Shown here: positions 2,510-52,300 of the stretch, in pieces
Layout of the letters: the number at the start of each line of letters is the position of its first letter
How positions within the stretch are numbered: position 1 is the first letter of the stretch
Assembly: GCF_053078305.1 (NCBI RefSeq)
Contig: NZ_CP166879.1
Direction: 5' to 3' (one strand)
Length of the DNA stretch: 64,000 nt
Translations under genes and position numbers: made by a program
Notes under the pieces: generated by a model
Databases searched by the model: none
The model's input: only the letters and a program-made list of their open reading frames with translations
Told to the model about the DNA's origin: nothing

Positions 2510-6025
<3,516 letters not shown>

Positions 6026-6036
6026 TGGCGTTAACC

Positions 6037-6145
6037 ATGCGAGCGTGCCTGATGCGCTACGCTTATCAGGCCTACGAGACTCCTGCAATATATTGAATTT
6101 GCATGTTTTTGTAGGCCGGATAAGGCGTTCACGCCGCATCCGGCA
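6037..6145. repeat. REP/BIME palindromic elements downstream of gyrB
   Basis: two REP-like palindromes, tgcctgatgcgctacgcttatcaggcctac and gtaggccggataaggcgttcacgccgcatccggca. Confidence 0.7.
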
Positions 6146-6161
6146 AGAAGCTATAAGAAAA

Positions 6162-6190
6162 GGGCGGAGATCATCTCCGCCCTTTTTATT
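6162..6190 (+). terminator. rho-independent terminator after gyrB
   Basis: GC stem gggcggagat / atctccgccc followed by a T run. Confidence 0.7.
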
Positions 6191-6264
6191 TCTGCAATCC
6201 GCAATTATCATCCCGCAGTTCTATACTTTTTGGGTCAACACGTAACGCTTTACAGGTGATTATC

Positions 6265-6663
6265 ATGGGGCTTTTTGATGAAGTTGTCGGCGCCTTTCTG
6301 AAAGGCGATGCGGGGAAATATCAGGCGATTTTAAGTTGGGTTGAGGAGCAGGGCGGCATTCAGGTGCTGCTGGAAAAACTGCAAAGTGGCGGCTTAGGGG
6401 CCATTCTCTCAACCTGGCTGAGTAATCAACAGGGCAATCAATCGGTGAGCGGCGAACAACTGGAATCGGCGCTCGGCACAAATGCGGTGTCCGATCTCGG
6501 GCAAAAACTTGGCGTGGATAACAGTACAGCTTCCAGTTTACTGGCAGAACAATTGCCGAAGATTATTGATGCGCTCTCACCGCAAGGTGAAGTGTCACCA
6601 CAAGCCAATAACGATCTGCTTTCCGCAGGCATGGAACTGCTGAAAGGGAAACTCTTCCGCTAA
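6265..6663 (+). CDS. yidB: DUF937-family protein YidB
   Basis: ORF 6256..6663; start placed at MGLFDEV from remembered YidB N-terminus; position after gyrB. Confidence 0.8.
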   Translation: MGLFDEVVGAFLKGDAGKYQAILSWVEEQGGIQVLLEKLQSGGLGAILSTWLSNQQGNQSVSGEQLESALGTNAVSDLGQKLGVDNSTASSLLAEQLPKIIDALSPQGEVSPQANNDLLSAGMELLKGKLFR

Positions 6664-6777
6664 GCAAATGGGGAGCATGCAACCCGCGTTGCATCCCCCT
6701 TTTCCCTCGGGTGTTGTACTGATTTTTGAGCGGAATCGCGTTAGCATGGGTCAGGAACCAATCTACCTGGGGAACTC

Positions 6778-7590
6778 ATGGCTATCAAACTCATTGCTAT
6801 CGATATGGATGGCACCCTTCTGCTGCCCGATCACACCATTTCACCTGCCGTTAAAAATGCGATTGCCGCAGCTCGCGCCCGTGGCGTGAATGTCGTGCTA
6901 ACGACGGGTCGCCCTTATGCAGGTGTTCACAATTACCTGAAAGAGCTGCATATGGAACAGCCGGGTGACTACTGCATTACTTATAACGGCGCGCTGGTAC
7001 AGAAGGCCGCTGATGGTAGCACCGTGGCGCAAACCGCTCTCAGCTATGACGACTACCGTTTCCTGGAAAAACTCTCTCGCGAAGTCGGTTCTCATTTCCA
7101 CGCCCTGGACCGCACCACGCTGTACACCGCCAACCGTGATATCAGCTACTACACGGTGCATGAATCCTTTGTTGCCACTATTCCGCTGGTGTTCTGCGAA
7201 GCGGAGAAAATGGACCCCAATACCCAGTTCCTGAAAGTGATGATGATTGATGAACCTGCCATCCTCGACCAGGCTATCGCGCGTATTCCGCAGGAAGTGA
7301 AAGAGAAATATACCGTGCTGAAAAGTGCGCCGTACTTCCTCGAAATCCTCGATAAACGCGTTAACAAAGGTACGGGGGTGAAATCACTGGCCGACGTGTT
7401 AGGTATTAAACCGGAAGAAATCATGGCGATTGGCGATCAGGAAAACGACATTGCAATGATTGAATATGCAGGCGTCGGTGTGGCAATGGATAATGCTATT
7501 CCTTCGGTGAAAGAAGTGGCGAACTTTGTCACCAAATCCAACCTTGAAGATGGCGTGGCGTTTGCCATTGAAAAGTATGTGCTGAATTAA
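6778..7590 (+). CDS. yidA: HAD-superfamily sugar phosphatase YidA
   Basis: 270-aa ORF with HAD motif I (IAIDMDGTLL) and motif IV (GDQENDIAM). Confidence 0.9.
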   Translation: MAIKLIAIDMDGTLLLPDHTISPAVKNAIAAARARGVNVVLTTGRPYAGVHNYLKELHMEQPGDYCITYNGALVQKAADGSTVAQTALSYDDYRFLEKLSREVGSHFHALDRTTLYTANRDISYYTVHESFVATIPLVFCEAEKMDPNTQFLKVMMIDEPAILDQAIARIPQEVKEKYTVLKSAPYFLEILDKRVNKGTGVKSLADVLGIKPEEIMAIGDQENDIAMIEYAGVGVAMDNAIPSVKEVANFVTKSNLEDGVAFAIEKYVLN

Positions 7591-7602
7591 TCTATGGGCG
7601 GG

Positions 7603-7630
7603 CAAACAGCATAAACGCGTTTGCCCGCTT
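7603..7630. terminator. hairpin between convergent yidA and yidX
   Basis: inverted repeat gggcgggcaaac ... gtttgcccgc. Confidence 0.5.
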
Positions 7631-7635
7631 ACTGA

Positions 7636-8292
7636 TTATTGGTTTATTGCATATACAACCAGAAATTGCAGCGGTGCAGTAATGATGTCCAGAGTAACAG
7701 TCACTGGCAGTAATGCTGCGGAAACACCATCCGGAATGCCTCTGGGTGAATAGTATTCATAAAATCGCACTTTAAATGGATGGTAGAACGCCATCACCTT
7801 TGAGTAATCCATGTTTTTATTTTTCTCATGGATTGTGCCTTTTAGGTTTTCCAGTGACCTGGTACAGTGTTGAACACCACAGGCAAAACCATAATGCGTT
7901 GCCAGTGCCTTTTCTTCTTCGTTATTCCAGTAGTAGTAAAGCGATATTGTGCCGGTAAATTTCTTTTTCCCCGCATTTAAAACAAATCTTGCGTCATCAG
8001 CAACCTGAATATTGTGCCGGTTAAGTGCTGGATCCTTGAGCATCTTAACGATGTCATCGGCACCATCAGTGATAAGGTAGTCCAGCGATTCTCCTACAAA
8101 AACATAGCCTTTTGTTCCATTACTATCTTTTGCCTGCGATAGCCCCGTGATGGTGTCTGACTGCGATTGATACTTTCCTGAAGTACCCTTTGCGGTATGG
8201 GAAACCAGGGCATACGAGATACAGCCCGAAAGCATCAGTGCTAGTGGGAATAAACCGGCAGCCTTAAAAAATCGCTTAAAATTCAAATTCAT
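7636..8292 (-). CDS. yidX: putative lipoprotein YidX
   Basis: ORF 7636..8310; start placed at MNLNFKRF; signal peptide with lipobox LSGC. Confidence 0.8.
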
Positions 8293-8538
8293 GATTAATC
8301 CTTTAAACAAGAGCGCTAAGCCGTTGAAAGCATACTCTTCTTTCCCTCCTGTTTAGCGCCTGCTCTCCCTTTTCAGATTTCTGCCCGATATAAGACCTTT
8401 TCTTATGAGGTGTTTTTTTGTGGACTAATATCTGTTGCAAGGCTATGGGTTCGCCCCGGCACTGGTTTATATCTCCGCCGTCGCGTTGATTGGCGCGCTC
8501 TCTTACATCCTGCTGGTGGACGATGTGAAGCGCGTTGG

Positions 8539-9603
8539 CTAATCCTTCAACTGTGGAATATGTGCCACACCACTGCGCATAATCCACTTTCTTAAAGCCG
8601 GTGCGGTCAGGCATCGGCTTTTTACTATCTTGCCGAAGAGTTTTAAACGCAGTTTGCGGGTGGCGCGCCAGTAAGCGGTATTGAGCTTCTCTGGCTGCTT
8701 CAGTAACACCGAACGCAGAATGTCTGCGCTATCCAGCGCATAGCTAATCCCCTCCAGCGAGCTGGCGCTGATAAATCCCGCCGCTTCACCAATCAGAAAG
8801 GCGTTGTCCTTACCGCAGACAAAATCCTGCCAGCGTGAGGGAAACAGCACTGTGCATTTTTCGCTTTTCACCGCTTTGCCAAACTGGAACTGAAAGGCGC
8901 TCATTTTCTCTTTCAGCGTCGCGAAACGCGTCTGACCGTCTTTCATTGGATAGGCACCGCCAAAGATAAAATAACCGTCTTTGCTGATACTCCATGAGTA
9001 ACAGTCAGTTATCGCATTATCAAAGATGCAGGAGTAGAACGGCACCGGATGTTTCTCTGCGAACCACTGCTGGATTGCGACATATTTACGGATTTGATGA
9101 TCCGGGTAGAGATGTCGCCGCACCATCGAGTTGGCACCATCGGCACCGACCAGATAGCGGGCGGTAATATGCTGCTCCCAGCCGTCTGCGCGAAAAATGA
9201 CATGCCATTTATCATCCTCACGCCAGATTTTCCGGCACAGGCTATCGTGGTAAACCTCAACGCTGACGGGGATCAGCGATTTCATCCACAAGTCGAAAGC
9301 ATGGCGATTAATATTGATATAGCTTCGCTGGTAGTTACGCGTGAGCGATGCGGCGACGTCGACGGTTTTGACGCTGAAAATCTGCGGATTAGCGATCACA
9401 TCGACAGGAAGCGTCAGCCCATCGCGAATAAAAGATCGCTGCGCGTCCGGTGCCAGCAGACCGCCACAAGGTTTGCTGAAACCTTCAGTACCATGCTGGT
9501 GCTTTTTATCCAGCGCGATCACCTGCATTTTGCCTGCTAACTTTCGCGCCAACGCCGACCCTGCCGGGCCGAGGCCAATAATCGCCACGTCGAAATGTTC
9601 CAT
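8539..9603 (-). CDS. cbrA: FAD-binding oxidoreductase CbrA (geranylgeranyl-reductase-like)
   Basis: N-terminal Rossmann motif [18 protein letters not shown] 8539..9624, start placed at MEHFDV. Confidence 0.8.
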
Positions 9604-9703
9604 CTTTTCACTCACATTCATCACGATGGCAAAAGACTATTGTCTGAAAGTGAAGTCCTTGTGAAGTATGATGGCGGGAACCGTTTTGTATCAGGACCGC
9701 GCC

Positions 9704-10918
9704 ATGAAACAGATAACCTTTGCTCCCCGTAATCACCTGCTCACCAATACCAATACCTGGACGCCCGACAGCCAGTGGCTGGTATTTGACGTGCGTCCTT
9801 CTGGGGCGTCGTTTACCGGCGAGACCATTGAGCGTGTGAATATCCATACCGGCGAGGTCGAGGTTATCTATCGCGCGTCACAGGGCGCACACGTCGGCGT
9901 GGTGACCGTTCATCCGAAGTCAGATAAATATGTCTTTATTCACGGCCCTGAAAATCCTGATGAAACATGGCATTACGATTTCCATCATCGACGCGGAGTC
10001 ATTGCTGAAGGCGGCAAGGTGAGCAATCTCGATGCAATGGATATTACTGCACCGTACACCCCAGGAGCGCTGCGCGGCGGCAGCCATGTGCATGTCTTTA
10101 GCCCGAACGGTGAAATGGTGAGCTTTACCTATAACGACCATGTAATGCATGAACGCAGCCCAGCGCTGGATTTGCGAAACGTCGGGGTTGCTGCACCGTT
10201 TGGCCCGGTCAACGTACAAAAGCAGCATCCGCGTGAATACAGCGGTAGCCACTGGTGCGTACTGGTGAGTAAAACAACGCCCACGCCGCAGCCTGGCAGC
10301 GATGAAATCAATCGTGCTTATGAAGAAGGATGGGTAGGAAATCACGCGCTGGCGTTTATTGGCGACACACTTTCGCCAAAGGGCGAGAAAGTGCCGGAGC
10401 TGTTTATCGTTGAGTTACCGCAAGATGAAGCTGGCTGGAAAGCAGCAGGTGATGCACCGTTAAGTGGAACGGAAACAACCCTGCCCGCGCCACCGCGTGG
10501 CGTCGTGCAGCGACGTTTAACCTTTACCCACCATCGGGCTTATCCGGGGTTAGTCAACGTCCCGCGCCACTGGGTGCGCTGTAATCCGCAGGGTACACAA
10601 ATCGCGTTTTTAATGCGAGATGATAACGGCATTGTGCAACTGTGGCTTATCTCGCCACAGGGCGGCGAGCCGCGCCAGTTAACCCATAACAAAACGGATA
10701 TTCAGTCTGCATTTAACTGGCATCCATCAGGAGAATGGTTGGGCTTTGTGCTGGATAATCGAATTGCTTGTGCCCATGCGGAAAGCGGGGAGGTTGAGTA
10801 TTTAACCGAAAACCACGCCAATCCACCTTCTGCGGACGCCGTGGTCTTCTCGCCGGATGGTCAATGGCTGGCGTGGATGGAAGGCGGTCAGCTGTGGATC
10901 ACCGAAACTGATCGCTAA
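9704..10918 (+). CDS. yidR: DUF3748 beta-propeller-like protein YidR
   Basis: ORF 9668..10918; start placed at MKQITFAPRN; conserved position next to yidQ. Confidence 0.78.
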   Translation: MKQITFAPRNHLLTNTNTWTPDSQWLVFDVRPSGASFTGETIERVNIHTGEVEVIYRASQGAHVGVVTVHPKSDKYVFIHGPENPDETWHYDFHHRRGVIAEGGKVSNLDAMDITAPYTPGALRGGSHVHVFSPNGEMVSFTYNDHVMHERSPALDLRNVGVAAPFGPVNVQKQHPREYSGSHWCVLVSKTTPTPQPGSDEINRAYEEGWVGNHALAFIGDTLSPKGEKVPELFIVELPQDEAGWKAAGDAPLSGTETTLPAPPRGVVQRRLTFTHHRAYPGLVNVPRHWVRCNPQGTQIAFLMRDDNGIVQLWLISPQGGEPRQLTHNKTDIQSAFNWHPSGEWLGFVLDNRIACAHAESGEVEYLTENHANPPSADAVVFSPDGQWLAWMEGGQLWITETDR

Positions 10919-10919
10919 A

Positions 10920-11252
10920 TCAGTTATCAGGCATTCTGGCCGGTGGAATAACCGCATTGGTGGCTTGCGCGTTGGCTTCGCTTTTTTCAACGCGTGAGCG
11001 CACCGAGCTGTCTTTGCGGAACACATCCCACGGCAGTAAAAGTGTGTCCATCACAGCGGTAAACGGCATATCGAGAATCGCCAGCGACTTAGTGCCCCAG
11101 TTGGTTTCATCGTCGCCAATCATGCTGGCGCTGGCGCGGGTGCCGGGATACGTTCCTTCTTTCCCCCCGGTATGGGACATCACGCTGGAGCATCCTCCGA
11201 GTAATGTCATTCCGCTGCATATCATGAACGCTAACAACACATTTCTTATCAT
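10920..11252 (-). CDS. yidQ: putative outer-membrane lipoprotein YidQ
   Basis: ORF 10920..11327; start placed at MIRNVLLAFMICSGMTLLGGCSS (signal peptide with lipobox). Confidence 0.75.
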   Translation of the reverse strand: MIRNVLLAFMICSGMTLLGGCSSVMSHTGGKEGTYPGTRASASMIGDDETNWGTKSLAILDMPFTAVMDTLLLPWDVFRKDSSVRSRVEKSEANAQATNAVIPPARMPDN

Positions 11253-11426
11253 AATAAATTCATCTGTTGATCGTGGGTGTTGGCCTGATGAGTTATAGCG
11301 ATCCCTTGCTGAAAATAACATCATCATTACGTCGCACTGTGGCGGCTATCGCACTTTAACGTTTCGTGCTGCCCCCTCAGTCTATGCAATAGACCATAAA
11401 CTGCAAAAAAAAGTCCGCTGATAAGG

Positions 11427-11456
11427 CTTGAAAAGTTCATTTCCAGACCCATTTTT
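11427..11456 (+). promoter_or_regulatory. sigma-32 heat-shock promoter of ibpAB
   Basis: CTTGAAA, 14-nt spacer, CCCATTTTT matches the sigma-32 consensus; the ~100-nt leader before ibpA is where a ROSE-type RNA thermometer would lie (inference). Confidence 0.7.
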
Positions 11457-11557
11457 ACATCGTAGCCGATGAGGACGCGCCTGATGGGTGTTCTGGCTAC
11501 CTGACCTGTCCATTGTGGAAGGTCTTACATTCTCGCTGATTTCAGGAGCTATTGATT

Positions 11558-11971
11558 ATGCGTAACTTTGATTTATCCCCGCTTTACCGTTCTGCTATTG
11601 GATTTGACCGTTTGTTTAACCACTTAGAAAACAACCAGAGCCAGAGTAATGGCGGCTACCCTCCGTATAACGTTGAACTGGTAGACGAAAACCATTACCG
11701 CATTGCTATCGCTGTGGCTGGTTTTGCTGAGAGCGAACTGGAAATTACCGCCCAGGATAATCTGCTGGTGGTGAAAGGTGCTCACGCCGACGAACAAAAA
11801 GAGCGCACCTATCTGTACCAGGGCATCGCTGAACGCAACTTTGAACGCAAATTCCAGTTAGCTGAGAACATTCATGTTCGTGGCGCTAACCTGGTAAATG
11901 GTTTGCTGTATATCGATCTCGAACGCGTGATTCCGGAAGCGAAAAAACCGCGCCGTATCGAAATCAACTAA
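11558..11971 (+). CDS. ibpA: small heat-shock protein IbpA
   Basis: 137 aa from [17 protein letters not shown]; alpha-crystallin domain. Confidence 0.95.
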
Positions 11972-12082
11972 TTCCCTAAGGCCGCCTGGCGCGGCCTGAC
12001 ATCTCCATGCTCGCCGTCAGGGAGCATATGCGAATCTTCGGATTTGCAGGTACTTACTCGCTTCTTAGAAGGAGAAATGACT

Positions 12083-12511
12083 ATGCGTAACTTCGATTTA
12101 TCCCCACTGATGCGTCAATGGATCGGTTTTGACAAACTGGCCAACGCACTGCAAAACGCCGGTGAAAGTCAGAGCTTCCCGCCGTACAACATTGAGAAAA
12201 GCGACGATAACCACTACCGCATTACCCTTGCGCTGGCAGGTTTCCGTCAGGAAGATTTAGAGATTCAACTGGAAGGTACGCGCCTGAGCGTAAAAGGCAC
12301 GCCGGAGCAGCCAAAGGAAGAGAAAAAATGGCTGCATCAAGGGCTTATGAATCAGCCATTTAGCCTGAGCTTTACGCTGGCTGAAAATATGGAAGTCTCT
12401 GGCGCAACCTTCGTAAACGGTTTACTGCATATTGATTTAATTCGTAATGAGCCTGAACCCATCGCAGCGCAGCGTATCGCTATCAGCGAACGTCCCGCGT
12501 TAAATAGCTAA
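12083..12511 (+). CDS. ibpB: small heat-shock protein IbpB
   Basis: 142 aa from [17 protein letters not shown]; paralog of ibpA. Confidence 0.95.
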
Positions 12512-12526
12512 CTAGCTATTCTCTTT

Positions 12527-12555
12527 GCCCCGCCATTCTGGTGGGGCTTTTTTTG
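12527..12555 (+). terminator. rho-independent terminator after ibpB
   Basis: gccccgcc ... ggtggggc stem followed by a T run. Confidence 0.6.
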
Positions 12556-12706
12556 TCTTTCTTCTTCAACAATGCGTTAAATTTCGACTGTTTAAGATAT
12601 TTCGGCACGTTCTTTCCCGTGATAATGTGCGCTATAAGGCAAATCTGCTTCACCGATTCAGCCATAATCCGTAGCAATTAAAATGTTATCTCAAGAGAAA
12701 TGGACG

Positions 12707-14368
12707 ATGAGTGATATAGCATTAACGGTCAGTATTCTGGCTTTGGTGGCAGTCGTCGGTTTGTTTATCGGCAACGTCAAATTTCGCGGCATAGGATTAG
12801 GTATTGGCGGCGTGCTGTTTGGTGGGATCATCGTCGGCCATTTTGTTTCTCAGGCGGGGATGACATTAAGTAGCGATATGCTGCATGTTATTCAGGAATT
12901 TGGCCTGATCCTGTTCGTTTATACTATCGGGATTCAGGTAGGGCCGGGCTTCTTTGCCTCATTGCGCGTCTCCGGATTACGCCTCAACCTGTTTGCTGTT
13001 CTGATCGTCATCATCGGTGGTCTGGTTACCGCCATCCTGCATAAACTGTTTGATATTCCACTGCCGGTAGTGCTGGGGATTTTCTCCGGTGCGGTTACCA
13101 ATACGCCAGCGCTGGGGGCAGGGCAGCAGATCTTGCGCGACCTGGGTACACCAATGGAAATGGTCGATCAGATGGGGATGAGTTACGCGATGGCGTATCC
13201 ATTCGGCATTTGCGGGATTTTGTTCACCATGTGGATGTTGCGGGTTATTTTCCGCGTCAATGTCGAGACAGAAGCCCAGCAGCACGAGTCTTCACGCACC
13301 AATGGCGGCGCGCTGATCAGGACTATCAATATTCGCGTTGAGAACCCTAACCTGCATGATTTAGCCATTAAAGATGTACCGATTCTCAACGGCGACAAAA
13401 TTATCTGCTCGCGTCTGAAACGCGAAGAAACCCTAAAAGTTCCTTCGCCAGATACCATTATCCAACTGGGCGATTTGCTGCATCTGGTGGGTCAGCCAGC
13501 GGATTTACATAATGCGCAACTGGTGATTGGTCAGGAGGTCGATACTTCGCTGTCCACGAAAGGCACTGATTTGCGCGTCGAGCGTGTGGTGGTCACCAAT
13601 GAAAACGTGCTTGGTAAGCGTATTCGCGACCTGCATTTTAAAGAACGCTATGACGTTGTTATCTCGCGCCTGAACCGTGCCGGGGTCGAACTGGTCGCCA
13701 GTGGCGATATCAGCCTGCAGTTCGGCGATATCCTCAACCTGGTGGGGCGTCCGTCCGCAATTGATGCCGTTGCCAATGTGCTGGGGAATGCGCAGCAAAA
13801 ACTGCAACAGGTTCAGATGCTGCCTGTGTTTATTGGCATCGGGCTTGGCGTATTGTTAGGTTCTATTCCCGTCTTTGTGCCGGGATTCCCGGCCGCGTTG
13901 AAACTGGGGCTGGCGGGCGGTCCGCTGATTATGGCGTTGATCCTCGGGCGTATCGGCAGTATCGGCAAGCTGTACTGGTTTATGCCGCCAAGTGCCAACC
14001 TCGCGCTGCGGGAGCTGGGGATCGTGCTGTTCCTCTCGGTCGTTGGTCTGAAATCTGGTGGGGATTTTGTAAATACCCTGGTCAATGGCGAAGGGCTAAG
14101 CTGGATTGGTTATGGTGCCCTGATCACCGCCGTTCCGCTGATTACTGTTGGCATTCTGGCGCGGATGTTAGCCAAAATGAATTACCTGACCATGTGCGGG
14201 ATGCTGGCAGGTTCCATGACCGATCCTCCGGCGCTGGCGTTTGCTAATAATCTTCATCCAACCAGTGGTGCGGCGGCGCTCTCTTACGCCACTGTCTATC
14301 CGTTAGTGATGTTCCTGCGCATTATCACCCCCCAATTACTGGCGGTGCTCTTCTGGAGTATCGGTTAA
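12707..14368 (+). CDS. yidE: AAE-family transporter YidE with TrkA-C domains
   Basis: ORF 12683..14368; start placed at [16 protein letters not shown]; two hydrophobic halves around a soluble middle. Confidence 0.85.
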
Positions 14369-28396: not shown

Positions 28397-28687
28397 ATGC
28401 AAAACACAACTCATGACAACGTGATTCTGGAACTCACCGTTCGCAACCATCCGGGCGTAATGACCCACGTTTGTGGCCTTTTTGCCCGTCGCGCTTTTAA
28501 CGTTGAGGGCATTCTTTGCTTGCCGATTCAGGACAGCGACAAAAGCCACATTTGGCTACTGGTCAATGACGACCAGCGTCTGGAGCAGATGATAAGCCAG
28601 ATAGACAAGCTGGAAGATGTGGTGAAAGTGCAGCGTAATCAGTCCGATCCGACGATGTTTAACAAGATTGCGGTGTTTTTTCAGTAA
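28397..28687 (+). CDS. ilvN: acetolactate synthase I small (regulatory) subunit
   Basis: 96-aa ACT-domain ORF immediately after ilvB. Confidence 0.95.
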
Positions 28688-28949
28688 GGAGCGACATTAA
28701 ACCGCTCGGGGGGGTACTGATGAGCGATTTTTGATAGATCCGTTCAGATATATAGGGTGAAATTGTGCCAGAGACTATCTCAGGCACAATTTATTAGCCC
28801 TGAATGTTAATTTAAGTCGCTGCACCAGTAATTTGGGGGTTCACAGTTAGGGCTAAAATTTCCAGCGATGGTGTTAAATTCTGATTGCTGTCTATACCAA
28901 TGGTCATGACCAGCATTCTATTAATTAATGGTTCATCGTGAGGTATATT

Positions 28950-41929: not shown

Positions 41930-43114
41930 ATGAGTGAATTTATTGCCGAAAACCGCGGCGCGGATGCCATCACCCGACCGAACTGGTCAGCCGTTTTCTC
42001 GGTGGCGTTTTGCGTCGCCTGTCTGATTATCGTTGAGTTTTTGCCCGTCAGTTTGTTGACGCCAATGGCCCAGGATTTAGGCATTTCGGAAGGGGTTGCC
42101 GGGCAATCGGTGACCGTGACCGCCTTTGTGGCAATGTTTGCCAGTTTGTTTATTACCCAGACAATTCAGGCCACTGACCGCCGCTACGTTGTTATTTTGT
42201 TTGCCGTTTTGCTGACGCTCTCCTGTTTGCTGGTTTCCTTTGCTAACTCATTCAGTTTGCTTTTAATCGGTCGTGCCTGTCTGGGGCTGGCGCTGGGCGG
42301 GTTCTGGGCGATGTCGGCGTCGCTGACCATGCGTCTGGTGCCGCCGCGTACGGTGCCGAAGGCGCTGTCGGTGATCTTCGGCGCGGTTTCTATTGCGCTG
42401 GTGATTGCCGCGCCGTTGGGCAGTTTTTTAGGCGAGCTTATCGGTTGGCGCAATGTCTTTAATGCGGCGGCGGTGATGGGCGTGCTGTGTATTTTCTGGA
42501 TTATCAAATCATTGCCTTCACTGCCAGGCGAACCCTCGCATCAGAAACAAAATACTTTCCGCTTATTACAACGTCCGGGTGTGATGGCAGGGATGATCGC
42601 CATCTTCATGTCTTTCGCCGGGCAGTTTGCTTTCTTCACGTATATTCGCCCGGTGTACATGAACCTGGCGGGATTCGGTGTGGATGGCTTAACGCTGGTG
42701 CTGTTAAGTTTTGGTATCGCCAGCTTTATCGGTACGTCGCTTTCGTCGTTCATTCTTAAACGTTCGGTAAAACTGGCCTTAGCAGGCGCGCCGTTAATAC
42801 TGGCTGTGAGTGCGTTGGTGCTGACGTTGTGGGGAAGCGATAAAATCGTTGCTACCGGCGTGGCGATTATCTGGGGGCTAACTTTTGCATTGGTTCCTGT
42901 CGGCTGGTCAACGTGGATCACCCGCTCACTGGCCGATCAGGCAGAAAAAGCCGGGTCTATTCAGGTGGCGGTTATTCAGCTTGCTAATACCTGTGGTGCG
43001 GCAATCGGTGGTTATGCGCTGGATAATATTGGTCTGACTTCGCCGTTGATGTTGTCCGGCACATTGATGTTGCTGACGGCGTTATTGGTCACCGCAAAGG
43101 TGAAAATGAAGTAA
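41930..43114 (+). CDS. nepI: MFS purine ribonucleoside efflux pump NepI
   Basis: start placed at [23 protein letters not shown] inside ORF 41867..43114. Confidence 0.9.
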
Positions 43115-43316
43115 CGTATTTACAGGAGGGGTTACTGCTCTGGCGGGAAAGCTCTCCTGTTCTACCTCCTGATAACCCTTGATCAGGTATTGTTCTTATC
43201 TTGTTGTTATTTCTATTCTTCCACCTGAATTCATCATTTGCTAATCATGAATCATCATTTTCCCTCATGTTAAAGAAAGGTCATTTAATCTGAACGCATA
43301 GCGACAGGGATGACAA

Positions 43317-46300
43317 ATGGCAGGGAAAGCGCATGGGAATGGCGATCGTCGGGGCGATAACACCATATGTGGATTGGGGGATCGTTTACGTCGTCTGACC
43401 GCCGGTATTTGCCTGATAACACAAACTATATTCCCTGTTATGGCCGCTGCCCCTACGCATATTAACCATGCGCATTCGGATACTGCCACGTCCCTGATCC
43501 TGCCGAACGTTAAAACTATTCCATATACCCTGGGGGCATTGGAATCGCCATCAACGGTCGCGGCACGCTTTGGTATCACCGTTGATGAATTACGTCGCCT
43601 GAATCAGTTTCGTACCTTTGCGCGGGGCTTTGACAATGTGCGTCAGGGCGATGAAATAGATGTGCCCCTCATTAACAGTAATAGCCCTGAAGCGCGCAAC
43701 CTGAAAGCAATGCAGATGGAGCGCGACGGCAAAGATCCGCAAATGCAGGTCGCGGAAGTGGCGCAGCAAAGCGGAACACTTTTAGCTCGCGATATGGACA
43801 GCGAACAGGCGGCGAGTATGGCGCGTGGCTGGGTGGCTTCTTCTGCATCTGCGCAGGCAACGGACTGGCTCAGTCGTTGGGGAACTGCCCGGGTATCTCT
43901 TGGTGTGGATGAAGATTTCAGCCTTAAAAGCTCTTCATTCGAATTTCTCCATCCCTGGTACGAAACGCCGGATAACCTGGTCTTCAGCCAGCACACACTT
44001 CACCGTACGGATGATCGCACTCAAACCAACCACGGTATCGGCTGGCGTTATTTCACCCCGAGCTGGATGTCTGGCGTCAATATGTTTATCGATCATGACC
44101 TGACCCGCTATCACACCCGAACCGGGATAGGCGTTGAATACTGGCGCGATTACCTGAAACTGAGCGGCAACGGTTATCTGCGCCTGAGTAACTGGCGTAG
44201 TGCACCGGAACTCGACCATGACTATGAAGCACGTCCAGCGAACGGTTGGGATCTTCGCGCCGAAGGCTGGTTACCGGCCTGGCCGCAGCTGGGCGGCAAG
44301 CTGGTCTATGAACAATATTATGGCGATGAAGTGGCGCTGTTTGGTAAAGACGAGCGACAAAATGATCCTCACGCGATTACCGCAGGTTTGAGTTACACCC
44401 CCGTTCCCTTAATCTCCTTTAGTGCCGAGCAACGGCAGGGCAAACAGGGAGAAAACGACACCCGAATTGGTATGGAGTTGACGTTGCAACCTGGTCATTC
44501 ACTGCAAAAACAGCTCGATCCAGCTGAAGTTGCAGCTCGGCGCAGCCTTGTGGGTAGTCGCTATGACCTGGTCGATCGTAATAACAATATCGTCCTCGAA
44601 TATCGCAAGAAAGAGCTGGTGCGGCTGACGCTGACCGATCCGTTGAAAGGCAAGCCGGGTGAGGTTAAATCGCTGGTTTCTTCCTTACAAACCAAATATG
44701 CGCTGAAAGGTTATGACATTGAAGCCGCCTCCCTGCAATCAGCGGGCGGAAAAGTAGCTGTTTCCGGCAAGGATATTCAGGTCACTATTCCTCCCTACCG
44801 ATTCACGGCAATGCCTGAAACCGACAACACTTACCCGATAGCGGTTACAGCGGAAGATTCGAAAGGAAATTTCTCCCGGCGTGAAGAAAGTATGGTGGTC
44901 GTGGAAAAACCCACATTAAGCCTCGCCGATTCAACGCTTTCTGTCGATCTGCAAATCCTGCTTGCTGATGGAAAATCAACCTCAATGCTGACCTATACCG
45001 CGCGAGATTCCAGCGGCAAGCCAATCCCAGGTATGACGTTAAAAACACAGGTGAAAGGTTTGCAGGATTTCGCCTTAAGCGAATGGAAAGACAACGGTAA
45101 CGGAACCTATACCCAAATAGTTACCGCCGGGAAGACGTCTGGCGCGTTATCGCTGATGCCGCAATTTAACGGCGACGATATCGCTAAGACGCCAGCGCTG
45201 ATTGCTATCGTGGCGAATACGGCATCCCGCGCTGACTCCACGATTGAGACAGACCAGGATAATTACGTCGCGGGTAAGCCGATAGTCGTTAAAGTGACCC
45301 TGAGAGATGATAACGGCAACGGGGTTACCGGACGAAAAGAACTTCTCAAACAAACCGTTAAAGTAGACAACACGAAGGCTGATGCCGTTAGTGCCTGGAC
45401 GGAAGAAAGTGAGGGAATTTACAAAGCAAGCTATACGGCCCATCTCATTGGCGACAAATTAACGGCCCAGCTGACGATGCCCGGCTGGCAAACCAAACAT
45501 TCGGATGCGTTCAGTATTGCGGGTGATAAAGATACCGCCAAAATCGCTGCGATGCAGATCACCGCGAATAACGCAGTTGCCAGACGCGATCACAATACCG
45601 TCGCTGTGACGGTCAGGGATGTGCATCAAAATTTACTGCAGGGACAAAATGTTACCTTCACGGTCGTGAATGGTGCGGCGGTTTTTGCCGATCCGAATGG
45701 CGGTATTGTGACGACAGATAAAGACGGGATAGCCAGCGTTAACCTTGCCAGTGACCAGGCGGTAAACAGTCTTATCAAGGCCGAGATCAATGGCAGTAGT
45801 CAGTCTGTGGAAGTGAGCTTTATCACTGGCGATATCTCGCAGCTGACCTCCACCATCAAGACGGACGATGTGTCATACACTGCGGGTGGCAAGATAAAAG
45901 TGTCCGTCACCCTTATGGATGAGCAGAAAAACCTGGTGAAAGGGATGGCTTCGCTGCTGGCGGGTAGCGGTGTGGTCGAGGTGAGCGGTACAGATAAAAA
46001 TGAAACGGGTAACTGGAGCGAAGAGTCTGACGGCGTTTACACCACCACCCGAACCGCGAAGATTGCTGGCGATCGCCATTACGCCACGCTGAAACTATCG
46101 ACATGGAGTAGCGCGCAGCAATCCGATGCGTATGCCATCCGCGAAAGCGGAGCTGTGCTGGCTTATTCCTCCATCGTTACCGACAAAACGACCTACACCG
46201 CGGGCGGCGTGATAAAAGTTACGGTAACACTCAAGGATAGCTATGAAAACCTGGTCGGGGGGCAACGAGACGCTATCAACCTGGCTATCCAGCTGCCAAA

Positions 46301-49300
46301 TACAAAAGCGGAAAGCATCGCCTGGAATGAAGATCAAAAAGGAATTTATACCGCAACGTATACCGCCTTACTCCCTGGCACCGGTTTAAAAGCACAGCTA
46401 CAGATGTCCGACTGGGCGAGCGCTCTGACTTCAAATGATTACAGTATTAGTGGCGATGCCGCCAGCGCACAAATTGTCGCGATGCAAGTGACAACGGGTA
46501 ACCCGGATGTGCTGGCGAATGGCAGCGATCGACATACGGTGAATGTCCGGGTGGAAGATCAGTTTGGCAATGTGCTGCCGGAGCAGACCGTCACCTTTAC
46601 GGTGACGAAGGGGGCGGCTGTATTTGCCAATGCAGGGCAGAGCGCAGATATCAGGACGGATGCGCATGGTATGGCAGAGGTTGATCTGAGCAGTACCGTA
46701 GCGGATGCCAGCACTGTTGAGGCTAAGGTCAATCAAAGCAGCGATAGTAAAACGGTGAACTTTGTTGCTGATGTCAGCACGGCGCAGATCGCTGATCTGG
46801 TGGTCATTAAGGATGGCTCAGTGGCAGACGGTTCGACGGCGAACACGCTGCGGGTGAGGGTGACGGATGCGTTCGGTAATGCGCTGGACGGGCAGACGGT
46901 CAGCGTGTTGGCGGACAACAGCGCAACGGTCGCTCCGACGGTTATCACCGAGCCGGACGGGACGGTGGAGATCTCTGTTACCAGCCAGACGGCGGGAGTC
47001 AGTGCGGTCACCGCCAGTATCAACAACAGCAGCCTGAGCCGGAACGTGACGTTTGTTGCCGATGTCAGGACGGCGAAGATCGCTGATCTGGTGGTGATGC
47101 AGGACGGCTCAGTGGCAGATGGCACGACGGCGAACACGCTGCGGGCGAGGGTGACCGATGCGTTCGGCAATGCGCTTGCCGGGCAGACGGTCAGCGTGAC
47201 TGCAGGCAACAGCGCAACGGTCGCTTCGACAGTGACCACAAAGCCGGACGGCACGGTGGAGATCAGTGTCACCAGCCAGACGGCGGGAGTCAGTACTGTC
47301 ACCGCCAGCATCAACAGCAGCAGTCAGAGCCGGGATGTGACGTTTGTCGCTGATGTCAGGACGGCGAAGATCGCGGACCTGGTGGTCACCCGGGATAACT
47401 CAGTGGCAGACGCTTCGACGGCGAATACGCTGCAGGTGAAGGTCACCGATGCTAACGGTAATACGCTTGCCGGGCAGACGGTCAGCGTGACTGCAGGCAA
47501 CAGCGCAACGGTCGCTTCGACGGTGACCACAAAGCCGGACGGGACGGTGGAGATCAGTGTCACCAGTCAGACGGCGGGGAGCAGTACTGTCACTGCCAGC
47601 ATCAACAGCAGCAGCCTGAGCCGGAACGTGACGTTTATTGCGGATGTCAGGACGGCGCAGATCGCGGATCTGGTGGTCATTAAGGATGGTTCAGAGGCGG
47701 ACGGTGCGACGGCGAACACGCTGCGGGCGAGGGTGACCGATGCGTTCGGGAATGCGCTTGCCGGGCAGACGGTCAGCGTGTTGGCGGACAACGGCGCAAC
47801 GGTCGCTTCGACGGTCACCACAGGGCCGGACGGCACGGTGGAGATTTCTGTCATCAGCCAGACAGCCGGAATCAGTGCGGTCACTGCCAGCATCAACAGC
47901 AGCAGTCAGAGCCGGGACGTGACATTTATCGCCGATGTCAGGACGGCGCAGATCGCGGAGCTGGTGGTTATTAAGGATGGTTCAGAGGCAGACGGTGCGA
48001 CGGCGAACACGCTGCAGGTGAAGGTCACCGATGCTAACGGCAATGCGCTTGCCGGGCAGACGGTCAGCGTGTTGGCGGACAACGGCGCAACGACTGCCCC
48101 GACGGTTATCACCGAGCCGGACGGTAAGGTGGAGATCTCTGTTACCAGTCAGACGGCGGGAGTCAGTGCAGTCACTGCCAGCATCAACAACAGCACCCTG
48201 AGCCAGAACGTGATGTTTATCGCCGATATCAGGACGGCGCAGATCGCGGAGCTGGTGGTTATTAAGGATGGTTCAGAGGCAGACGGTGCGACGGCGAATA
48301 CGCTGCAGGTGAAGGTCACCGATGCTAACGGCAATGCGCTTGCCGGGCAGACGGTCAGCGTGTTGGCGGATAACGGCGCAACGGTCGCTTCGACGATGAC
48401 CACAAAGCCGGATGGCACGGTGGAAATCAGTGTCACCAGCCAGACGGCGGGCACCAGTTCGGTCACCGCCAGCATCAACAACAGCAGTCAGAGCCGGGAT
48501 GTGACATTTATCGCGGATGTCAGGACGGCGCAGATCGCGGACCTGGAGGTCATTAAGGATGGTTCAGAGGCGGACGGTTCGACGGCGAACGCGCTGCGTG
48601 CGAGGGTGACCGATGCGTTCGGTAATACGCTTGCCGGGCAGACGGTCAGCGTGTTGGCGGACAACGGCGCAACGGTCACTCCGACGGTCATCACAGGGCC
48701 GGACGGCACGGTGGAGATCTCTGTCACCAGTCAGACAGCCGGAATCAGTGCGGTCACTGCCAGCATCAACAGCAGCAGTCAGAGCCGGGACGTGACATTT
48801 ATCGCCGATGTCAGGACGGCGCAGATCGCGGATCTGGTGGTCATTAAGGATGGTTCAGAGGCGGACGGTTCGACGGCGAACACGCTGCGGGCGAGGGTAA
48901 CCGATGCGTTCGGTAATGCGCTTGCCGGGCAGACGGTGAGCGTGTTGGCGGATAACGGCGCAACGGTCGCTCCGACGGTCATCACAGGGCCGGACGGTAC
49001 GGTGGAGATCAGTCTCACCAGCCAGACGGCGGGCACCAGTGTGGTCACTGTCAGCATCAACAACAGTAGCCTGAGCCAGAGCGTGACATTTATTGCCGAT
49101 GTCAGGACGGCGAAGATCGCGGATCTGGTGGTCATTAAGGACGGCTCAGTGGCAGATGGCGCGACGGCGAACACGCTGCGGGTGAGGGTCACCGATGCGT
49201 TCGGTAATACGCTTGCCGGGCAGACGGTCAGCGTGACGGCAGGCAACAGTGCAATGGTCGCTTCGACTGTCATCACAGGGCCGGACGGCACGGTGGAGAT

Positions 49301-52300
49301 CTCAGTCACCAGCCAGACCGCCGGAACCAGTACAGTCACCGCCAGCATCAACAACAGCAGCCAGAGCCGAAACGTGACGTTTACTGCCGATGTCAGGACG
49401 GCGCAGATCGCGGAGCTGGAAGTGACACAGGATAACGCAGTAGCAGACGGCGCAATGGCGAATATGCTGCGGGCGAGGGTGACCGATGCGTTCGGTAATA
49501 CGCTTGCCGGGCAGACGGTCAGCGTGACGGCAGGCAACGGCGCAACGGTCACTCCGACGGTGACCACGCAGCCGGACGGCACGGTGGAGATCTCTGTCAC
49601 CAGTCAGACAGCCGGAATCAGTGCGGTCACTGCCAGCATCAACAGCAGCAGTCAGAGCCAGAGCGTGACGTTTGTCGCCGATATCAGGACGGCGCAGATC
49701 GCGGATCTGGTGGTCATTAAGGATGGTTCAGAGGCGGACGGTTCGACGGCGAACACGCTGCGGGTGAGGGTGACGGATGCGTTCGGTAATGCGCTGGACG
49801 GGCAGACGGTCAGCGTGTTGGCAGGCAACGGCGCAACGGTGTCTCCGACGGTCATCACAGGCCCGGACGGCACGGTGGAGATCTCTGTCACCAGCCAGAC
49901 GGCGGGGATCAGTGCAGTCACTGCAACCATCAACAGCAGCAGCCAGAGCCGGAACGTGACGTTTATCGCCGATGTCAGGACGGCGCAGATCACGGTGCTG
50001 GAAGTGACGCAGGATAACGCAGTAGCAGACGGCGCAATGGCGAATACGTTGCGGGTGAGGGTGACCGATGCGTTCGGCAATGCGCTTGCCGGGCAGACGG
50101 TCAGCGTGTTGACGGACAACGGCGCAACGACTGCCCCGACGGTGATCACAGAGCCGGACGGCACGGTGGAAATCAGTGTCACCAGCCAGACGGCGGGGAT
50201 CAGTACTGTCACTGCTAGCATCAACAACAGCAGCCTGAGCCAGAGCGTGATGTTTATCGCCGATATCAGGACGGCGCAGATCGCGGATCTGGTGGTCATT
50301 AAGGACGGCTCAGAGGCGGACGGGGCGACGGCGAACACGCTGCGGGCGAGGGTGACCGATGCGTTCGGTAATACGCTTGCCGGACAGACGGTCAGCGTGT
50401 TGGCGGACAACGGTGCAACAGTTGCCCCGACGGTGATCACAGAGCCGGACGGCACGGTGGCGATCTCTGTCACCAGCCAGACTGCCGGAATCAGTGCGGT
50501 CACCGCCAGCATCAACAGCAGCAACGCGAGCAGGAACGTGATGTTTATCGCCGATATCAGGACGGCGCAGATCGCGGATCTGGGGGTTATTAAGGACGGC
50601 TCAGTGGCAGACGGTTCGACGGCGAACACGCTGCGGGCGAGGGTCACCGATGCGTTCGGGAATGCGCTTGCCGGGCAGACGGTCAGCGTGTTGGCGGACA
50701 ACAGCGCAACGGTTGCCCCGACGGTGATTACAGAGCCGGACGGTATGGTGGAGATCCCTGTCACCAGCCAGACGGCAGGAATCAGTGTGGTCACCGCCAG
50801 CATCAACAGCAGCAGTCAAAGCCGGGATGTGACGTTTATCGCCGATATCAGGACGGCGCAGATCGCGGACCTGGTGGTCATTAAGGACGGCTCAGTGGCT
50901 GACGGCGCAATGGCGAATATGCTGCGGGCAAGGGTGACCGATGCGTTCGGTAATGCGCTGAATGGACAGACGGTCAGCGTGACGGCAGGCAACGGCGCAA
51001 CGGTCACTCCGACGGTCACCACGCAGCCGGACGGCACGGTGGAGATCCCTGTCACCAGCCAGACGGCAGGCACCACTGCGGTCACTGCCAACATTAACAG
51101 CAGCAGCCAGAGCCGGAACGTCACGTTTATTGCGGATGTCAGGACGGCGAAGATCGCTGATCTGGTAGTCACCCGGGATAACTCAGTGGCAGACGGTGCA
51201 ATGGCGAATACGCTGCAAGTGAAGGTCACCGATGCATTCGGGAATGCGCTGAATGGGCAGACGGTCAGCGTATCGACAGACAACAGCGCAATGGTCACTC
51301 CGACGGTGACCACGCAGCCGGATGGCACGGTGGAGATCAGTGTCACCAGTCAGACGGCGGGGATCAGTACAGTCACTGCCAGCATCAACAGCAGCAGCCA
51401 GAGCCGGGATGTGACGTTTATCGCCGATGTCAGAACGGCGCAGATCGCGAGTCTGGAGGTGACGCAGGATAACGCCGTGGCTGACGGCGCAATGGCGGAT
51501 ATGCTGCGGGCGAGGGTCACCGATGCGTTCGGCAATGCGCTTGGCGGACAGACGGTCAGCGTGACGGCAGGCAACGGCGCAACGGTTGCCCCGACGGTGA
51601 TCACAGAGCCGGACGGCACGGCGGAGATCAGTGTCACCAGCCAGACGGCGGGAGTCAGTGCAGTCACCGCCAGCATCAACAGCAGCAGCCAGAGCCGGGA
51701 TGTGACGTTTATCGCCGATGTCAGGACGGCGAAGATCGCGGATCTGGTGGTCATTAAGGACGGCTCAGTGGCAGACGGCGCAATGGCGAACACGCTGCAG
51801 GTGAAGGTCACCGATGCTAACGGCAATGTGCTTGCCGGGCAGACGGTCAGCGTGTTCGCAGGCAACGGTGCCACGACTGCTCCGACGGTCACCACGCAGC
51901 CGGACGGCACGGTGGAGATCTCTGTCACCAGCCAGACGGCAGGCACCAGTGCGGTCACTGCCAGCATTAACAGCAGCAGCCAGAGCCGGGATGTGACGTT
52001 TATCGCCGATGTCAGAACGGCGAAGATCGCTGATCTGGTGGTCATTAAGGACGGCTCAGTGGCTGACGGCGCAATGGCGAACATGCTGCAGGTAAAGGTT
52101 ACCGATGCTAACGGCAATGTGCTTGCCGGGCAGACGGTCAGCATGATGGCAGGCAACGGTGCAACGGTTGCCCCGACGGTGATTACAGAGCCGGACGGTA
52201 CGGTGGAGATCCCTGTCACCAGCCAGACGGCGGGAGCCAGTGCGGTCACCGCCAGTATCAACAGCAGCAACGCGAGCCGGAACGTGACGTTTGTTGCCGA

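Follow-up and report, generated by a model that had tools for sequence, protein, structure and literature searches.

The D-galactonate operon dgoRKADT has been lost from its chromosomal site between yidX and cbrA in the genome studied here, and we consider it very probable that a single 4,750-bp loss-of-function deletion haplotype, one that seems to have spread between lineages, stands in its place; the strain is likely to be galactonate-negative as a result. The stretch of DNA analysed (the window, 64,000 nucleotides in all) appears to open an E. coli chromosome that starts at dnaA and to cover its first 64 kb. Its genes run in the order gyrB, yidB, yidA, yidX, cbrA, and the gyrB coordinates match those in many dnaA-rotated complete genomes. 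According to the MG1655 annotation, K-12 has yidX, dgoR, dgoK, dgoA, dgoD, dgoT and cbrA in that order, so an earlier note on this DNA had the K-12 arrangement right. The same note stated that yidX and cbrA are directly adjacent in the window, and the ORF coordinates, together with the PGAP annotation of relatives, agree: exactly 246 bp (8293..8538) separate the two genes.

As the earlier note had also claimed, the operon is missing here. The alignment to K-12 lacks it, and when the five K-12 Dgo proteins were compared with the 64-kb window by tblastn, nothing was found besides the tail of DgoT and weak matches to the MFS paralogues uhpT and uhpC; the window thus has no operon in which dgoR, dgoK, dgoA, dgoD and dgoT are all present. 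Two short ORFs in the gap, 8410..8595 on the plus strand and 8303..8614 on the minus strand, had been judged not to look like Dgo proteins. Neither has a Pfam match, and to that extent the judgement holds, but it overlooked a 3' remnant of dgoT which lies in the gap in another frame. We considered the gap as a coding or RNA feature in its own right and rejected this, as the named ORFs and the remnant peptide are without a Pfam match and a search of the interval 8100..8800 for Rfam families and for promoter-like or terminator-like sites came back empty.

Both neighbours of the deletion are intact. On the left, yidX is 97.9% identical in nucleotide sequence to its K-12 counterpart and has homologues annotated by PGAP in strain A16 and in O157; in the ORF list its reading frame extends to a TTG at 8310. 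On the right, cbrA matches the Pfam families FAD_binding_3 and DAO. As a consequence of the deletion the two genes are co-directional with only the 246-bp gap and no predicted terminator between them, and read-through from cbrA into yidX may be possible. The coordinates of these and the other features are collected in Table 1.

Table 1. Features of the yidX-cbrA region in the window, and two examples of the mobile dgo module in other replicons.
Feature	Coordinates	Strand	Basis or remark
gyrB	3608..6025		window gene before yidB
yidA	6778..7590		between yidB and yidX
yidX (lipoprotein, class A allele), intact	7636..8292	-	ATG start used by PGAP in homologues
Conserved part of yidX-dgoR intergenic region (yidX upstream region), retained	8293..8364		alignment
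Left half of carrier-specific core; retained, normally hypervariable spacer	8365..8428		alignments
Deletion junction	8428..8429		K-12 locus (L001) 3242/7993 joined
dgoT 3' remnant, pseudogene fragment, 37 codons + stop (114 bp), in frame	8429..8542	+	tblastn
cbrA (FAD-dependent colicin M resistance reductase), intact	8539..9603 (PGAP start); longest ORF 8539..9624	-
Mobile dgoRKADT, plasmid pWP4-S18-ESBL-07_1 (L009)	7700..12740
Mobile dgoRKADT, E. coli SMS-3-5 chromosome (L020)	5400..10440

A BLAST search with 8250..8600 places both breakpoints. Window positions 8250..8428 align to positions 3064..3242 of the K-12 locus and 8429..8600 to 7993..8164, leaving the K-12 segment 3243..7992 missing; the alignment of the junction to K-12 and other E. 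coli that the earlier note had proposed as a check therefore returns a loss of 4,750 bp, with an identical junction in A16 and O157. The segment removed comprises the dgo promoter and its operators, dgoR, dgoK, dgoA, dgoD and 92% of the transporter gene dgoT (codons 1-408). On the left the breakpoint is 141 bp upstream of the dgoR start, right after ...CTAA; on the right it falls within dgoT, at codon 409 of 445. The retained intergenic sequence next to yidX is almost the same in every intact E. coli allele and in the mobile dgo copy described below. The remaining retained spacer is identical in the window, A16, O157 and Escherichia sp. E1V33, and ends ...GTGGACTAA, immediately ahead of the start of the DgoR operator IR1 in K-12 (ATTGTAGTACAA). 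The published sequence of IR1 is 5'-CTAAATTGTAGTACAACAATAT-3' (PMC11705089). IR1 begins at the left breakpoint, and the window retains neither its core nor IR2 nor the promoter that overlaps both operators.

The dgoT remnant corresponds to DgoT residues 409-445, with 94.7% amino-acid identity (tblastn, E=1e-14), and its stop codon overlaps that of cbrA by 4 bp, as in K-12. In A16 and in O157 Al Ain, PGAP annotates it as a CDS that is 'partial, missing N-terminus'. The window has all the marks of the O157:H7-type deletion allele, namely the left breakpoint at K-12 position 3242, the right one at dgoT codon 409, and the linked variants in 8365..8449. Differences among carriers within the remnant are five non-synonymous to two synonymous, suggesting relaxed constraint, as for a pseudogene. 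We also considered whether the remnant might be a new small gene, since a change of GCG to TTG at 8435 could provide a TTG start codon for a peptide of 35 aa, in which one transmembrane helix is predicted; this was rejected in view of the same five-to-two ratio, a TAA directly upstream and the lack of a nearby Shine-Dalgarno sequence. Comparison with the K-12 sequence revealed no microhomology or repeats at the breakpoints. The allele was most probably produced by one illegitimate join, without microhomology as judged against K-12, which fused the yidX-dgoR intergenic region to dgoT codon 409 with the left cut at the outer edge of IR1, giving a loss-of-function deletion allele of dgoRKADT.

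A 91-bp junction probe (8385..8475) was searched in 5,426 complete E. coli genomes and matched 413 of them (about 8%), all at 95.6% identity or better, in a single copy each and always on the chromosome. Approximately 352 of these carriers have the O157-type sequence, which differs from the probe at two positions; they include Sakai, EDL933 and O55:H7 TB182A. The other 61, at 99% identity or better, include O145:H28 RM12581, A16, PS10-3 and ETEC6335. Neither half of the probe matched any genome with an intact dgo operon among the 5,426. Among GTDB species, scanned with one genome each, the junction recurs in Escherichia sp. E1V33, which is a separate species-level lineage (92.6% identity to the window over 9.4 kb). 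Part of this distribution could reflect vertical inheritance within one phylogroup, for example phylogroup E.

Four carriers (the window, A16, O157 and E1V33) have no differences from one another in the 91 bp of the core, 8364..8454, whereas their 1-kb flanks diverge from the window by 3.2% in O157 and 6.7% in E1V33; the Poisson probability of an unchanged core in E1V33 is 0.002. Against K-12 this core shows differences in 21 of 92 columns, and against every intact allele the figure is about 23% of positions. Beyond the core the carriers part company, each with flanking alleles of its own. For cbrA, for instance, the window is closest to K-12 and AVS0971 (97.5-97.6%), and O157 cbrA stands at 96.6%. 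Identity of the window to Sakai is 97.6% over 22 kb; to K-12 it is 97.9-99.0% and to A16 98.3%, and on these figures, which span tens of kilobases, carriers resemble one another no more than they resemble a non-carrier. Because the carrier backgrounds are as different from each other as from non-carriers, we infer that the allele moved between backgrounds by homologous recombination, in the course of which the linked flanks would have eroded to a core of roughly 90-125 bp. The deletion itself evidently arose once and is common to O157:H7, O55:H7, O145:H28, other lineages and E1V33.

Strain A16 (L002; from an otter in Mexico) shows what may be one such transfer. Compared in 200-bp windows, it is 98-100% identical to our sequence over approximately 7436-9134, a segment taking in yidX, the junction and most of cbrA, and apart from four differences in the dgoT remnant the identity there is 100%, against about 98.3% in the adjoining 17 kb. 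This segment looks like a shared imported recombination tract carrying the deletion. We considered using A16 as a proxy for the present genome, but rejected it, as the 99-100% identity between the two is confined to the surroundings of the junction and drops to about 98.3% beyond them.

E. coli also has a second, mobile version of the operon. This module consists of the whole yidX-dgoR spacer and the five genes, without yidX or cbrA, and lies between IS66 and IS200/IS605 remnants on chromosomal islands and plasmids. About 234 records have this version at 99% identity or better, and some strains have two dgo operons. Carriers of the junction (413) and genomes with dgoRKAD (5,022) add up to 9 more than the 5,426 searched, which means that nine or more of the carriers (at least 2.2%) must have dgoRKAD elsewhere. 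With the regulator, three enzymes and the transporter gone, the allele should permit no D-galactonate uptake or catabolism by the known route, and a galactonate-negative phenotype is likely in our strain, unless it has a mobile dgo copy outside the window; the proviso in the earlier note, that the genes might be elsewhere, is a sound one. Our literature search found no paper reporting the phenotype of carriers of this junction.

Such a copy, on an IS-flanked island or plasmid of the kind seen in SMS-3-5 and pWP4-S18-ESBL-07_1, would leave the strain able to use D-galactonate. The number of records of the mobile version and the carriers with dgoRKAD at another place give this idea some substance, but tblastn finds no copy within the 64-kb window and carriers seldom have one, about 404 of the 5,426 genomes being without any dgoRKAD; we regard it as quite improbable here. 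The mobility of dgoRKADT, as a near-exact module of intergenic region and five genes, could also be taken to mean that the short junction is ancestral and that K-12 and most E. coli acquired the operon by insertion, a question of direction which the earlier note had left open. The evidence decides it for loss in this lineage and not gain in K-12, because the dgoT remnant is in frame, the control region is truncated at an operator, and the operon occupies the site elsewhere. An empty site could not retain a gene fragment, let alone the last 37 codons of dgoT in frame, or a dgo control region cut at IR1. The dgoRKAD genes are present in 5,022 of the 5,426 complete E. coli genomes, with dgoRKADT placed at this site; the operon is also intact at the site in E. 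marmotae and in some assemblies labelled E. albertii, and a contig with gyrB-yidA-dgo-yidR puts it at the same site in a more distant enterobacterium. Moreover, the mobile copy is bounded at approximately K-12 positions 3126 and 8122, away from the deletion breakpoints at 3243 and 7992. We give the insertion reading virtually no credence.

Hardly more credible, in our view, is the proposal that an identical deletion recurred in separate lineages at a mechanistic hotspot. The operon has been lost more than once in the genus, as E. albertii GCA_027566115.1 has a different deletion, leaving a 112-bp gap. The four carriers compared here, however, have breakpoints identical to the base along with 21 linked variants in the surrounding 91 bp, variants absent from every intact allele examined; all 413 probe matches are of the closeness given above, and the breakpoints offer no repeat or microhomology to drive recurrence. 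A single deletion, subsequently spread between lineages, is thus the reading that we carry forward.

The core that these carriers share is unusual on both sides of the junction. The left side varies among intact alleles as well, but the carrier form is distinct, with GTGGACTAA in place of an invariant GTGATCTAA and a T7 run in place of TTCTTTTT. As an observation on the spacer generally, compared across the window, L001, L004-L008 and L012, the 70 bp adjoining yidX are almost invariant and the segment of about 45 bp just upstream of IR1 is hypervariable in intact E. coli (K-12 and AVS0971 differ at about 8 of 43 positions); in carriers this segment contains a short inverted repeat, ATAAGA-N5-TCTTAT. 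On the right side, the first 30 nt of the remnant (8429..8458) have nine differences from all intact Escherichia dgoT examined. They fall, relative to K-12, at 8431, 8435-8436, 8440, 8443, 8446 and 8449, and the remaining two, at 8455 and 8458, belong to the window-type allele; intact dgoT reads TACCTGGCGCAGGGTTACGGTTT(C/T)GC in seven diverse E. coli, the mobile copy, E. marmotae and E. albertii. Seven of the nine differences are at synonymous third codon positions (binomial P=0.008), the exception being the change of GCG to TTG (Ala to Leu). The core looks like a deeply diverged, once-functional dgoT allele. The 3-nt periodic pattern most likely predates the deletion, in which case a functional dgoT would have diverged at synonymous sites while its Escherichia-type peptide was kept.

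The search for a donor covered complete E. coli genomes, GTDB species representatives, JGI metagenomes and intact dgoT genes reached through relatives of YidX and DgoK. No intact donor allele of the core was found in the 5,426 E. coli genomes, where the 91-bp probe matches carriers only. The scan of GTDB species representatives, whose pattern required TTG and was thus blind to an intact GCG-type donor, returned only E1V33, itself a carrier. Scans of JGI metagenomes yielded no core-type allele, only two distant dgoT orthologues and one unrelated sequence. Intact dgoT genes reached through YidX relatives (E. marmotae, and L015 and L016, both labelled E. coli) have ordinary E. coli sequence and supply no donor, the intact dgoT of E. 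albertii, reached through a DgoK cluster member, has ordinary E. coli sequence at the core positions, and dgoT genes from other genera, reached through distant DgoK relatives, match at 20-22 of 30 positions, no closer than K-12.

This lack of a donor in E. coli, in the GTDB species representatives and in the JGI metagenomes, with other genera no closer, is what might be expected if the dense differences beside the junction had arisen during or after the deletion, by error-prone repair or by neutral decay of an ancient allele protected from recombination, instead of being inherited from a diverged functional allele. Such an origin would also fit the narrow reach of the differences, which extend about 64 bp to the left of the junction and 30 bp to its right. 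Random mutation of a dead fragment does not, however, concentrate on synonymous third positions as the dgoT-side differences do, and those changes that are clearly later than the deletion, the differences among carriers, are mostly non-synonymous. On balance we think a post-deletion origin unlikely. It is possible, and we put this forward tentatively and at rather less than even chances, that the allele is an old single haplotype from a deeply diverged, unsampled Escherichia-like lineage, which spread horizontally by homologous recombination, with very short surviving flanks, into several lineages of E. coli and into one or more other species of Escherichia. If so, the dgoT remnant would preserve the synonymous-site signature of its unsampled source lineage, the yidX-dgo-cbrA interval would be a small region holding trans-species haplotypes, and selection for the loss of galactonate catabolism in some hosts may have aided the spread.

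The closest counterparts of the window's allele are those of O157:H7 Sakai (NC_002695.2, ECs_4630/ECs_4631) and EDL933, which have the same breakpoints, the same dgoT remnant and the same core. The O157-type allele differs from that of the window in having E. coli-like bases at 8455 and 8458 (GCA CCT), and its cbrA is a different allele in a background that, over the 22 kb compared with Sakai, is no closer than noted above. The K-12 operon for DgoR-repressed D-galactonate catabolism occupies the same site, with the neighbours gyrB-yidB-yidA-yidX on one side and cbrA-yidR-yidQ-ibpAB on the other; relative to it the window is without the promoter, both DgoR operators, the first four dgo genes and all but the end of dgoT. 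In E. albertii GCA_027566115.1 the operon has been lost from the same site, again with cbrA and yidX as neighbours, but that deletion (L011 6889..7000) has other breakpoints, keeps an IR1-like ATTTGTAGTGCGA and leaves no dgoT remnant, and the cbrA 3' end, and with it the CbrA C-terminus, is altered (358 aa). It is independent of the deletion in the window. Other assemblies labelled E. albertii (L028, L029) have an intact dgo operon with no cbrA called between dgoT and yidR.

Pathogenic E. coli are known for lineage-specific catabolic losses, O157:H7 being sorbitol-negative and beta-glucuronidase-negative. The dgo deletion is like these in that a dispensable carbon-source pathway has been inactivated in a subset of lineages, and unlike them in that the identical deletion extends beyond the O157 lineage and beyond E. 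coli. We found no paper explicitly describing the dgo deletion of O157:H7; the only relevant statement located was that some natural isolates are without the structural dgo genes (PMC12288454).

Several other observations in the window deserve mention. The neighbouring yidX gene is hyper-polymorphic, with three deep allele classes in E. coli (compared across the window gene and L004-L008, L011, L012 and L015). Class A is that of K-12, O157 and the window. Class B (cluster P0140, 2,099 members) has 69% nucleotide identity to class A (about 59% in amino acids) and 90% to E. marmotae, and class C has about 80% identity to class A and 90% to E. albertii, while yidA is 96-99% identical in genomes with divergent yidX. 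These classes have the look of trans-species polymorphism, or of introgression that happened repeatedly. Extra hypothetical genes absent from K-12 lie between uhpA and ilvN in the window (30388..30798), in A16 and in Sakai, and these are reflected in a break in the K-12 alignment at 28687-32087. Further along, a segment of about 19 kb (approximately 43100..62100), absent from K-12 at the selC-side position, contains eilA as well as a very large, repetitive gene for an inverse-autotransporter adhesin (annotated air/eaeX or iatC in relatives). Over 30-50 kb no complete genome matches at better than 98.4%, and O157 Sakai has the LEE island there instead.

The deletion allele is not in itself new, having been present in public reference genomes since the first O157:H7 sequences and being already annotated as a pseudogene fragment, and it is a real but ordinary gene-loss polymorphism that will not surprise specialists. 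What is modestly new is the evidence for one deletion haplotype with a foreign-looking core, common to several Escherichia lineages, and the hyper-polymorphism of the adjacent yidX. The case is a tidy one of a deletion allele common to lineages and species, adjoining a hyper-polymorphic lipoprotein gene. In practical terms, the junction can serve as a simple PCR or k-mer marker for O157:H7, O55:H7, O145:H28 and a minority of other strains, and would predict a D-galactonate-negative phenotype in them. The use of D-galactonate is of consequence in the gut, since mutations inactivating dgoR have been selected repeatedly in mouse colonisation experiments (as summarised in PMC12288454), and persistent and sporadic bovine STEC colonisers differ in their oxidation of D-galactonic acid lactone (PMC7354573). 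In view of this selection on dgoR in the gut and of the lactone oxidation in bovine STEC, a common dgo null allele is relevant to models of the niches of these organisms.
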